A stretch of DNA of 64,000 nucleotides from an uncultured delta proteobacterium (GCA_963747845.1 CAVVGR010000005.1:3508-67507), one strand, 5' to 3'; counted from the first letter of the stretch, positions 17,749-20,950 are shown. The notes: generated from the sequence alone by a model not told the origin. Numbers and translations: made by a program.

Positions 17749-19545
17749 TCAGAAAATCGGCAGCCTGATTCCCGCCGTGACCATCGCGCCGCTCGCTACA
17801 CCCATCAGCGCCTCGCCGGCCACCAATCCCGCCGCCAGCAGAATCCCGGGTCCGCTCTCGGCCTCATCCTCGGATCCGAAAACCGAATGCGCAAGCGCGC
17901 CGATAAAAATCGCCACGCTGAGCCCGAACGGGAGATAAAGGCCAATCGCTGCGGGCATGATCGGCGTGCGCCACTTCGATCCGCTCCGCTCCAGATAGCG
18001 ATCGCTGAATCCAAGCATCGCTGCCAGCACCGCGCCCGTCGCGATCGTTCCGATAGGCAGTCCGCCGTGGAAAACTCCTTGCGTCACTTTCGCCATCAGG
18101 AACGCTTGCGGCGCGGCCAGTGCGCCGGCCCGTGCAGTCGGCGTTCCCGCGATTCCGTAGCCCGCGATCAGCAGGTTCAGAATCGGCGCCATCAGGAACG
18201 ACGATGCGATCGCGCCGACCAGAACGCCGATTTCGAGCGATCGCGGCGTCGCGCCGACGTGAAAGCCGGTCGCCAGGTCATGCGTCGAATCGCCGGCCAT
18301 CGCAGCCGCCGTGCATACGATCGCGCCCGACAAAATCGCCAGCTGCGGCCCAACGCTCTGCGACACGCCGACCAATTTCAAAAACAGCGCCACCGCGAGC
18401 AGCACGATCACCGTCACGCCCGACACCGGATTGTTCGACGCGCCGACTATTCCGGTCAGATAGCCGGCGATCGCGGTCGCAAAAAAGCAGATCAGAGTCA
18501 GCAGGATTGCCAGCGCCGCGCTGAGCGCGATTTGTCCGCTTAGTCCCAGGCAAATGGCAAAGATTACCGGCACGCACAGCGCCACTGCGGTCAGCACCGC
18601 ACGCGCCGAAAGGTCGGTGTCCTCGCGCGCCGTTGCGACCGCTTGGGTCGAGCGCACCACGCGGATGCTGTCGGCGATCGCCGACGCTATCCGCTTGCGC
18701 AACTTCCACAGCGTCACAACTCCGCCCGTCAGCATCGCGCCGACGCCCAAATAGCGCACCTGGCCGCGCCACAATTGCAACGCAATGTCGGCGGCGTCTC
18801 CCGCTCCGCCGCCGCCATGAAACGCCGTCAACACCGGAATCGCGACCAGCCATGCGAATACGCCGCCGGCGAACACCAGCGCCGCGATTCTGATTCCGAT
18901 TATGTAGCCGACTCCCAGCAGCGCCGCCGAAATGTCGAGCGACCCGGCCACTGCCGCGTTGCCGACCCATCGCGCGCCCGTCACCGCGCCGGGAATGATA
19001 CCCACCATATCTTGCAGCGCCTTGAGCGCCGCCGAGATCAGTCCGCCGATCACGAGCGGGCGAACGTTAGCTTCGCATCACCGGCCCGAAGCACCTGCGC
19101 GCATGCGACGCCTTCGGGAAAAGGCAGCCGCTCCTCCACGACGTACGCGCGGCGCAAAAATACCACGAGCAACGAGCCCATCGTCGCGCCCACGACGCAT
19201 AGCGCAGTCACCTCGACGTACGGCAGCCTGCGCACTCCGCCCAGAATCACCAGCGCCGGAAACGTGAAGATCGCGCCCGCCGCGACCGCCTCGCCCGCCG
19301 ACGCAATCGTCTGCACCACGTTGTTCTCGAGAATCGTCGATCCGCCAAGAATCCGCAGAATCGCCATCGAGATGACGGCGGCCGGAATGCTCGCCGACAC
19401 CGTCAGGCCCGCATACAAACCGAGATAGGCATTCGCCGCGCCAAGAATCAGCGCCAGCGCGATACCAAGCACGATACTGCGTGGCGTCAGCTCGCGAATC
19501 GCCGCGCCAGATTCCGGATTTGGATTGAATCGTCGCGCTGCACGC
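17749..19545 (-). CDS. OPT/YSL-family oligopeptide transporter; frameshift near 19070, start approximate
   Basis: RELT, ANAYLGLYAGLTVSASIPAAVI, ENNVVQTIASAG, LPFPEGVA, APQAFLMA. Confidence 0.9.
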
Positions 19546-19592: not shown

Positions 19593-20082
19593 TCAGCCGT
19601 TCTTCGCGTCGAGCTTGGGGTAGTCCACCGGCTTGCCGGCCTGCTTCCATCCCTCGATGCCGTCGCTCATCACACTTACGTCGGTATATCCTGCTGCGAC
19701 CGCCCGACGGGCGGCTTCATGCGATGCAGTTCAATGCAGGTCGGCGCAGTAGAAAACCAGCTTCGCGCTTTTGTCCGCGGGCAGCGTGCTTGCGACATCG
19801 TACTTGTCGTCGCTGCTCAGCAGATGCGCGCCTGGAATCACGCCCGCAGTCGAACGCAGGCCCCATCCGTTCGCGTCATAGATATTAACGTGCGAGTTGG
19901 GATCGGCCATCATCGAGGCAAGCTTGTCAACGCGAATGACGGCAAACTTGTCCGGGGCCGTCGGCTTGTTGTTAAGCAGCGACCCGATGTCGAAAGGCAA
20001 AAACCGGCGCGGTAACAGACAAAACAAACGCGCCGACAATCATAGAAACGATCGAACGGCGCGCGCGGAAATACATATCCAT
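19593..20082 (-). CDS. Exported rhodanese-like protein with in-frame TGA (putative selenocysteine); homopolymer frameshift near 19995
   Basis: Signal peptide, IPGA, KLVFYCADLH-TGA-TASHEAARRAVAAGYTDVSVMSDGIEGWKQAG continues in frame to the stop at 19593. Confidence 0.8.
19699..19730 (-). promoter_or_regulatory. Candidate bacterial SECIS element
   Basis: GCCGCCC-GUC-GGGCGGU hairpin; the loop starts with G, 22 nt after UGA. Confidence 0.65.
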
Positions 20083-20170: not shown

Positions 20171-20950
20171 ATGCTGAAACTATTCGAGCATCCGTTTTCG
20201 CCGTACGTGCAGAAAGTCAAAATCGCGCTCTACGAAAAGAACGTCGCGTTCGAGGTCGAAATCCCCGACGCTTTCAGCGGCGCGCCAACCGTATTCGTCC
20301 AGACCAGCCCACGGCTCGAAGTGCCGGCGCTGGTCGATGGGGACTTTGCGATTTTCGACTCGACCATCATCCTCGACTACATCGAGGAAAAATGGCCCAC
20401 GCCCGCCCTGCTGCCCTCGACGCCGCGCGACCGCGCCCGGGTGCGCATGATCGAAGACGTGTGCGACACGTACTACGAGGCAATCAACTGGGGCCTGATG
20501 GAAGTTCGCGCGTGGAAGCGCGTGACCGGCGACGCCGCGGCGCAACTTCAGCAGAAAGCCTACGAGCAGACTGCGGGCGTGTTCAAATGGCTCGAACGCG
20601 AGCTCGGCAGCGCGAATTATTTCAACGGCGCATCATTCGGCTACGGCGACCTGAGCGTTTACCCGCACGTCCGCGGCTCGGTCGTTTGGGGCAATCCGCC
20701 AAAGGCCGGAACGCGGCTCGCCGAATGGGTTGCGCGTGTCGAAGAACGTCCCAGCGTTCGCAAAACCATCGAAGCGGCCCAGCAGTTCGCAGGCTCGATG
20801 GAGACGCTGCCGCAGATTCTCGAGTCGGGCGCCTTCGCCCGCCAGTATCGCGACCATCGCCTCGAGTGGATGCTGCGCAGCGGCGGCGTCGAAGTCGTGC
20901 TCGCGGGTTTGAAGAAAAAGACGATCCGGTTTTCGAGCGAGATTTCCTAG
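20171..20950 (+). CDS. Glutathione S-transferase family protein
   Basis: [34 protein letters not shown]. Confidence 0.9.

Follow-up and report, generated by a model that had tools for sequence, protein, structure and literature searches.

A conserved in-frame TGA points to an exported Cys-x4-Sec rhodanese in Candidatus Binatus

When a TGA interrupts a rhodanese gene, does it mark where the protein ends, where the gene has died or where selenocysteine (Sec) is inserted? The question is raised by a locus in a 64,000-nucleotide stretch of an uncultured bacterium's genome (GCA_963747845.1, CAVVGR010000005.1:3508-67507; hereafter, the window), in which an open reading frame with a rhodanese domain breaks off at a TGA and the same frame continues behind it. 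A sequence-only reading of the window had proposed a hidden exported selenoprotein, with a Cys and a Sec in its active-site loop and a SECIS-like hairpin behind the UGA. We consider it highly probable that the gene is indeed an intact, Sec-recoded and exported rhodanese of Candidatus Binatus (Binataceae, uncultured soil and peat bacteria), a reading supported by a conserved TGA/Cys column, by constraint on the hairpin and by the in-frame signal peptide of the relatives. The best reading of its product is a single-domain rhodanese selenoprotein of about 162 residues whose export is predicted.

A rhodanese interrupted by a TGA and by a surplus base

Translation of the window gives a rhodanese open reading frame on the minus strand (20039..19731) that ends ...KLVFYCADLH at TGA 19733-19731, just where the sequence-only reading had placed its stop. 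The further claim that the frame runs on to a stop at 19593 also holds, as past this TGA it reads TASHEAARRAVAAGYTDVSVMSDGIEGWKQAGKPVDYPKLDAKNG, 45 conserved codons up to a true stop TGA at 19595-19593; this C-terminal part (19593..19730, minus strand) combines conserved amino acids with synonymous change. The read-through product, whose C-terminal part includes the peptide AVAAGYTDVSVMSDGIEGWK, matches the Pfam Rhodanese model PF00581 with E = 1e-9 and 39 bits (cut-off 22.2), and its N-terminal part, FDIGSLL...KLVFYCADLH, assigned by translation and the same match, spans 19734..19994 on the minus strand. The canonical catalytic Cys (C112) is encoded by a TGC at 19748-19746, minus strand. Five residues on, the in-frame TGA (19731..19733, minus strand), a conserved column among homologs, would be read as Sec (U117), so that the active-site loop becomes C-A-D-L-H-U-T-A-S.

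Upstream, an ATG at 20082 starts a signal-peptide-like open reading frame, MDMYFRARRSIVSMIVGAFVLSVTAPVFAF (19993..20082 on the minus strand, by translation), whose frame differs from that of the rhodanese. A surplus base within TTTC (19992..19995, minus strand) parts the two in this assembly, and comparison with the relatives does not distinguish whether it is a T or a C. Removal of one nucleotide near 19995 had been predicted to join the signal peptide to the domain, and the relatives carry precisely this fusion: in nearly all of them the signal peptide is in frame (..APVFAFDIGSLLNNKP) with TTY GAC at the junction, where this genome reads GCCTTTCGACATC and its closest relative, G031 (90% DNA identity over 3.4 kb), reads GCATTT-GACATT. 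The one base aside, the read-through protein is 95% identical to that of the nearest relative. The only other frameshifted ortholog, in G043, is broken at another site.

Broken frames are found elsewhere in the same assembly. Compared with G031, a stretch of 3.4 kb has at least two single-nucleotide indels in coding regions, namely the surplus base at about 19992 in the rhodanese gene and a missing G at about 19071 in the OPT-family transporter gene directly downstream (17749..19472, minus strand, assigned by PF03169). The latter, probably another assembly indel, splits the transporter gene into two overlapping open reading frames (GCGAA-GCTAAC here, GCGAAGGCGAAT in G031). A third difference from G031, a 2-nt gap at about 21472 (GGCGGAGAAG--GAAGCTGG against ..GAAGATGAAG..), lies inside overlapping long open reading frames upstream of a glutathione S-transferase-like gene. 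In the rest of the genome, rpoB (C12:166503-170559) lies in two frames with an internal TGA, selA (C12:33276-34609) in three frames and selB (C6:98148-100044) in two, and in places the assembly appears to contain about one indel per kb, a density that may also depress its completeness estimate of 86%. Since rpoB, selA, selB and the OPT gene are frame-broken too, we read the 1-nt frameshift at 19995-19992 as most likely an assembly error, unique to this assembly. Among the related records are many Microflora Danica (MFD) bins, whose contigs are long and very few in number; we take these bins to be long-read assemblies.

In the predicted signal peptide, a hydrophobic core follows a basic n-region, and A-F-A (an A-x-A site) precedes the residues FD. 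An RR pair is common among the orthologs, with GR, LR, QR and RF variants; because the pair is frequent but variable, a signal of the general-secretion type is favoured over a strict Tat signal, and Tat export was set aside.

For the fold, we used AF2 with a 104-sequence alignment and discarded a 12-sequence run (pLDDT 51). The resulting model (pLDDT 91.9) shows one rhodanese domain, with the catalytic Cys at the end of a strand and with the fold completed by a helix and strands from the C-terminal part TASHEAARRAVAAGYTDVSVMSDGIEGWKQAGKPVDYPKLDAKNG. The closest solved structures (Foldseek TM 0.6-0.7) are all single-domain rhodaneses, namely 2hhg (RPA3614), 3nhv, 6mxv, YgaP, Sud and GlpE; BH2092 and a Francisella rhodanese are among these nearest structures. 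In sequence alignment, YgaP's catalytic Cys is matched by the first Cys of the present loop, which has one residue more and places the putative Sec where classical rhodaneses carry Arg.

The TGA column and the hairpin behind it

A search of 5.8 billion proteins gave 491 matches. About 10-11 database homologs are full length (161-168 aa) and read YCADxxCTASHEAARRA, and more than 100, mostly 116 aa long and mostly from Candidatus Binatus MAGs, stop exactly at ...YCADLH. A whole-genome search in which stop codons were read through located an ortholog in 44 of 81 related genomes. Across 44 readable gene copies, to which G023 contributes one TGA and one Cys copy and from which one unreadable partial copy was left out, the column holds a single in-frame TGA in 38 and a Cys codon (TGC or TGT) in six. 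The alternation of Cys and TGA anticipated by the sequence-only reading is therefore what the homologs display, with Cys in some 11 full-length database proteins and in the six genomic forms and TGA in the other 38, and the TGA is conserved among relatives down to about 54% identity and in several Binatia families.

In the 38 TGA forms, the 45-46 codons that follow the TGA keep their amino acids while their four-fold sites vary freely, and the downstream peptide is conserved in TGA and Cys forms alike. The true stop is also a TGA in 20 of these 38 forms, so TGA is not generally reassigned in them.

The wider Cys-x4-Cys family comprises 743 clusters (50%-identity representatives) at E <= 1e-10. 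Among the best 150 of these 743 cluster representatives, C-x4-C occurs in 153 domain instances, and both Cys columns, including the one that holds the TGA here, are invariant in an alignment of 104 diverse family members. C-x4-C is the rule for the wider family, and the YCxxxxC motif that the sequence-only reading had given for the subfamily is thus confirmed.

The gene tree has at least two clades in which Cys forms branch from within Sec forms, and Sec-to-Cys switches occurred at least twice. One genome holds both forms: in G023, at locus L048 (G023:C288:5738-9130), a Cys form (YCADTQC) lies directly upstream of a Sec form (YCADLHU) as tandem copies about 550 nt apart, and the two may be a selenium-dependent isoform pair. 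A further database homolog, P0003, resembles the window protein and its Sec-form clade in its N-terminal half and the Cys-form clade in its C-terminal half (ADTQC...GWVDAGKPVEHPKL), and is either a recombinant or a chimeric assembly.

The sequence-only reading had also pointed to a hairpin, GCCGCCC-GUC-GGGCGGU, 15 nt after the UGA. We locate it at 19715-19699 on the minus strand (feature 19699..19715, from folding and synonymous-site conservation), where a GC stem of 6-7 bp starts 15 nt after the UGA and closes a G-N-C loop whose first base, the G, is the 23rd nucleotide downstream. This position and the small apical loop opening with G fit the bacterial SECIS model. The folding energy is unexceptional for this single sequence (z = 0.06 against shuffles for a 76-nt region), and the case that the hairpin exceeds chance is a comparative one.

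The 38 Sec-form sequences are all distinct within a 75-nt region, and the hairpin core GCCGCC(C)-G-N-(C)GGGCGG is almost invariant across them. Third-position entropy in the stem codons of these Sec forms is 0.18 at +6 (Ala GCC) and 0 at +7 (Ala GCC), +9 (Arg CGG) and +10 (Ala GCG); at the nearby four-fold codons +1, +2, +12, +13 and +14 it is 1.0-1.65. The sole variable third position within the hairpin belongs to codon +8 (CGG/CGT), in the middle of the apical loop. The encoded peptide, A-A-R-R-A, dictates four of the six base pairs, and the remaining two pair wobble position with wobble position. Both of these wobble-wobble pairs are intact in all 38 Sec forms compared to one of the six Cys forms (Fisher p = 5.5e-6, ignoring phylogeny), and the hairpin decays in Cys forms. 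Three one-sided C-to-U changes among the Sec forms preserve pairing, one of them turning Arg into Trp, and two-sided compensatory covariation was not found with RNAalifold and pair counting. As the hairpin lacks compensatory changes, the support for the structure is selective constraint at synonymous sites. On this evidence the claim of a SECIS-like hairpin stands, its position being conserved and synonymous change being suppressed only in TGA forms.

Two of the Cys forms retain most of the hairpin. L047, in G033, differs at one wobble pair, and L041, in G016, has exchanged C-G for G-C at a wobble-wobble pair and so still pairs there, in a genome where tRNA-Sec is still present. Their retention of most of the hairpin suggests that conversion from Sec to Cys was recent in both.

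Selenocysteine machinery and competing readings

The genome that contains the window (3.43 Mb in 17 contigs, 86% complete, with 37 tRNA genes) encodes SelA (475 bits), SelB (332 bits) and SelD (377 bits), all above curated cut-offs. Of the four genes that the sequence-only reading had named for a check, selA, selB and selD are thus present; selC is the one that was not found in this 86%-complete assembly, where ARAGORN, Rfam RF01852, blastn with the tRNA-Sec of relatives and one syntenic site were used. The sole RF01852 match over the cut-off in this genome, at 50 bits, is a tRNA-Ser(UGA), and a 52.8-bit match in G022 is a tRNA-Leu; both were rejected. The tRNA-Sec of the relatives is 92 nt long, scores about 72 bits and is called SeC by ARAGORN with anticodon tca. 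Within the genus, it is present in 17 of 22 genomes with a TGA form compared to two of eight without one (p = 0.028). Three genomes of this same-genus set have Cys forms only, and tRNA-Sec is present in G016 and was not found in G010 and G019. For this genome, the chief remaining reservation is that selC is missing from an incomplete assembly.

Other users of the machinery may be few. The formate-dehydrogenase-like molybdopterin oxidoreductases of this genome, at C3:86391-88304 and C2:9385-9780, have no in-frame TGA, so the organism's selenoproteome may be small and the rhodanese may be a main user of its Sec machinery.

How do other readings of the locus compare? It is quite unlikely, in our view, that the family is a true selenoprotein of which this copy is dead, with a real frameshift in a lineage that is losing selenocysteine use. 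Such a history would account for the frameshift at 19995-19992 in the assembly, for the tRNA-Sec missing from it and for selA and selB being split across frames, and the genus does include cases of Sec-to-Cys switching and of tRNA-Sec loss. However, the essential rpoB is likewise frame-broken, with an internal TGA, as is the neighbouring OPT gene, and no living cell could sustain indels at this density, which indicates assembly error; moreover, the one base aside, the rhodanese is 95% identical in protein to that of the nearest relative, with TGA and hairpin intact. The same single base could instead be a programmed +1 ribosomal frameshift at UUU-C that joins the signal peptide to the domain, as UUU C GAC would let tRNA-Phe re-pair on UUC, but almost every relative has the two parts in one frame without any shift, the break in G043 lies at another position and there is no conserved stimulatory element, which makes this reading hardly credible.

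The TGA itself could be a true stop or a nonsense mutation, leaving a truncated protein of about 116 residues and a mere remnant of similarity downstream. Gene callers and NCBI do annotate a 116-residue 'hypothetical protein', and a CGA-to-TGA change is a single step if an Arg sat there, as in classical rhodaneses. Against this, homologs have Cys and not Arg in the column, 38 species-level genomes retain the TGA while the 45 codons behind it are under purifying selection, and truncation would remove the helix and strands with which the AF2 model completes its fold, so we hold a genuine stop to be extremely unlikely. Read-through without selenium, by a near-cognate tRNA that inserts Trp or Cys, would leave the hairpin as a stimulator of read-through or a by-product of the AARRA codons. 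It fits the absence of compensatory covariation, the four of six stem pairs forced by the peptide and the failure to find tRNA-Sec here and in five of the 22 same-genus genomes with a TGA form. We nonetheless regard it as very unlikely, because the TGA form co-occurs with tRNA-Sec (17/22 against 2/8), G010 and G019 keep the gene without tRNA-Sec and have Cys codons in it, the Sec/Cys exchange falls on an invariant redox Cys, the hairpin's position and G-first loop fit the bacterial SECIS model, and the wobble positions are fixed only in TGA forms. Returning to Sec recoding, the internal TGA is almost certainly a conserved Sec codon, and the gene is therefore intact.

Relation to known rhodaneses and possible function

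Rhodanese selenoproteins are an established class, for which a 2026 review (PMC13188914) lists five forms: UxxS, UxxG, CxU (NF041203), UxxG and UxxxxU (TsoB, NF045694). TsoB is its 'rhodanese form 5', for which it cites Haft & Tolstoy 2025, and form 1, a PF00581 protein with the motif UxxS, has WP_010941598.1 as its example accession (PMC13188914, PMC9312934). The C-x4-U rhodanese is a member of this known class in a form that is absent from the 2026 catalogue (PMC13188914) and from NCBIfam.

Among curated models, TsoB (NF045694) scores best, reaching 49.5 bits in a match that covers residues 92-157 and with them the active-site loop. By spacing and profile match the two proteins are alike, each being a putative extracytoplasmic-type redox protein with a rhodanese domain and two chalcogen residues spaced x4. 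TsoB, with accession WP_332113227.1, extends over 572 positions, joins its rhodanese to a DsbD-like membrane part and has two Sec; only its rhodanese part is matched here, far below the cut-off of 805 bits. The present protein stands alone as a predicted exported domain of about 162 residues that has Cys at the first of the two chalcogen positions, a single Sec and an OPT neighbour. The LYCAU type (NF041203, form 3) is also a single-domain rhodanese selenoprotein with Cys and Sec in the same loop, but it places Sec at +2 (C-x-U) and not at +5 (C-x4-U), and its model gives 36.7 bits here compared to a cut-off of 115. As both scores lie below the respective cut-offs, the protein belongs to neither curated family. 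The example of form 1, presumably a Geobacter sulfurreducens protein, was compared by its listed motif only: UxxS fits the local U-T-A-S, so the C-x4-U rhodanese may overlap with form 1, whose listing has no Cys five residues upstream, no signal peptide and no Binatia. Our scan of genome contigs yielded Binatus/Binataceae MAGs alone, and the form 1 rhodanese lies beyond its reach.

The direct homologs are the exported Cys-x4-Cys rhodaneses, a family without a curated name that has the same fold and loop. They differ in having Cys for Sec and no fixed hairpin, and the Binatus Cys orthologs among them share the OPT neighbour. TIGR03865 ('PQQ-dependent catabolism-associated CXXCW motif protein') is a weak match, with 39.9 bits compared to a cut-off of 128. 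With classical rhodaneses (E. coli YgaP, GlpE and PspE, and Wolinella Sud) the protein has in common the fold and a catalytic Cys that ends the central strand, but their loop is one residue shorter, with Arg or Thr at the Sec position and no second chalcogen residue. Sud and PspE are periplasmic. In the literature, our search returned no paper linking Binatia or Binatota with selenoproteins.

How might such a protein be made and work? We propose that SelB and tRNA-Sec recode UGA 19733-19731 as selenocysteine, and that the recoding signal is the short GC hairpin 15 nt downstream, laid over the codons of A-A-R-R-A. The catalytic Cys would be retained, with Sec five residues on, and the loop would exceed the usual length by one residue. 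Once the protein is exported, Cys and Sec could together serve as a redox or chalcogen-transfer dyad in which one residue accepts sulfane sulfur or makes a mixed bond with the substrate and the other resolves it via an intraloop selenenylsulfide, and Sec would make this chemistry faster and more reversible than in Cys-x4-Cys homologs. Taken on its own, the dyad chemistry is a tentative proposal to which we give slightly less than an even chance; in line with the sequence-only reading, the protein would act as a sulfur/selenium transferase.

The downstream transporter gene matches PF03169 in both of its pieces (E = 1e-51 and 1e-28). In 33 of 43 loci, the rhodanese gene is followed by a co-oriented OPT gene; Cys forms and a second genus are represented among these 33. 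At this locus, we found no terminator-like site between the two genes, which are probably co-transcribed. On the other side, the glutathione S-transferase-like gene (20171..20950, plus strand, with GST_N_3 and GST_C_2 matches) is divergent from the rhodanese gene, and a gene of this kind is divergently adjacent upstream in a minority of loci. It is conceivable, if rather improbable, that the exported Cys-x4-Sec rhodanese and the OPT transporter form a conserved two-gene module, in which the selenoenzyme processes a peptide or thiol that carries sulfur or selenium outside the cytoplasm and the transporter imports the product, with glutathione persulfide or a selenotrisulfide as candidate substrates. 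If true, an abundant, uncultured lineage of soil bacteria would present a new physiological role both for a rhodanese selenoprotein and for a bacterial OPT transporter.

For annotation, gene callers and NCBI cut the gene at the UGA in every Sec-form record examined, which turns it into 116-residue 'hypothetical proteins'. With the gene cut there, the annotation of this genus, widespread in soil and peat, lacks the rhodanese domain, its active-site loop and the selenoprotein as such, and dozens of uncultured soil Binatus bacteria are affected by the mis-annotation. In addition, metagenome assemblies of few contigs can carry indels that mimic pseudogenes. For the evolution of SECIS elements, the locus would present an element built on a conserved peptide, where AARRA sets four pairs and selection on two wobble-wobble pairs adds the rest. 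The catalogue of rhodanese selenoproteins would gain a stand-alone, exported C-x4-U form, and with at least two Sec-to-Cys switches and one genome with tandem Cys and Sec copies, the family provides a natural comparison set.
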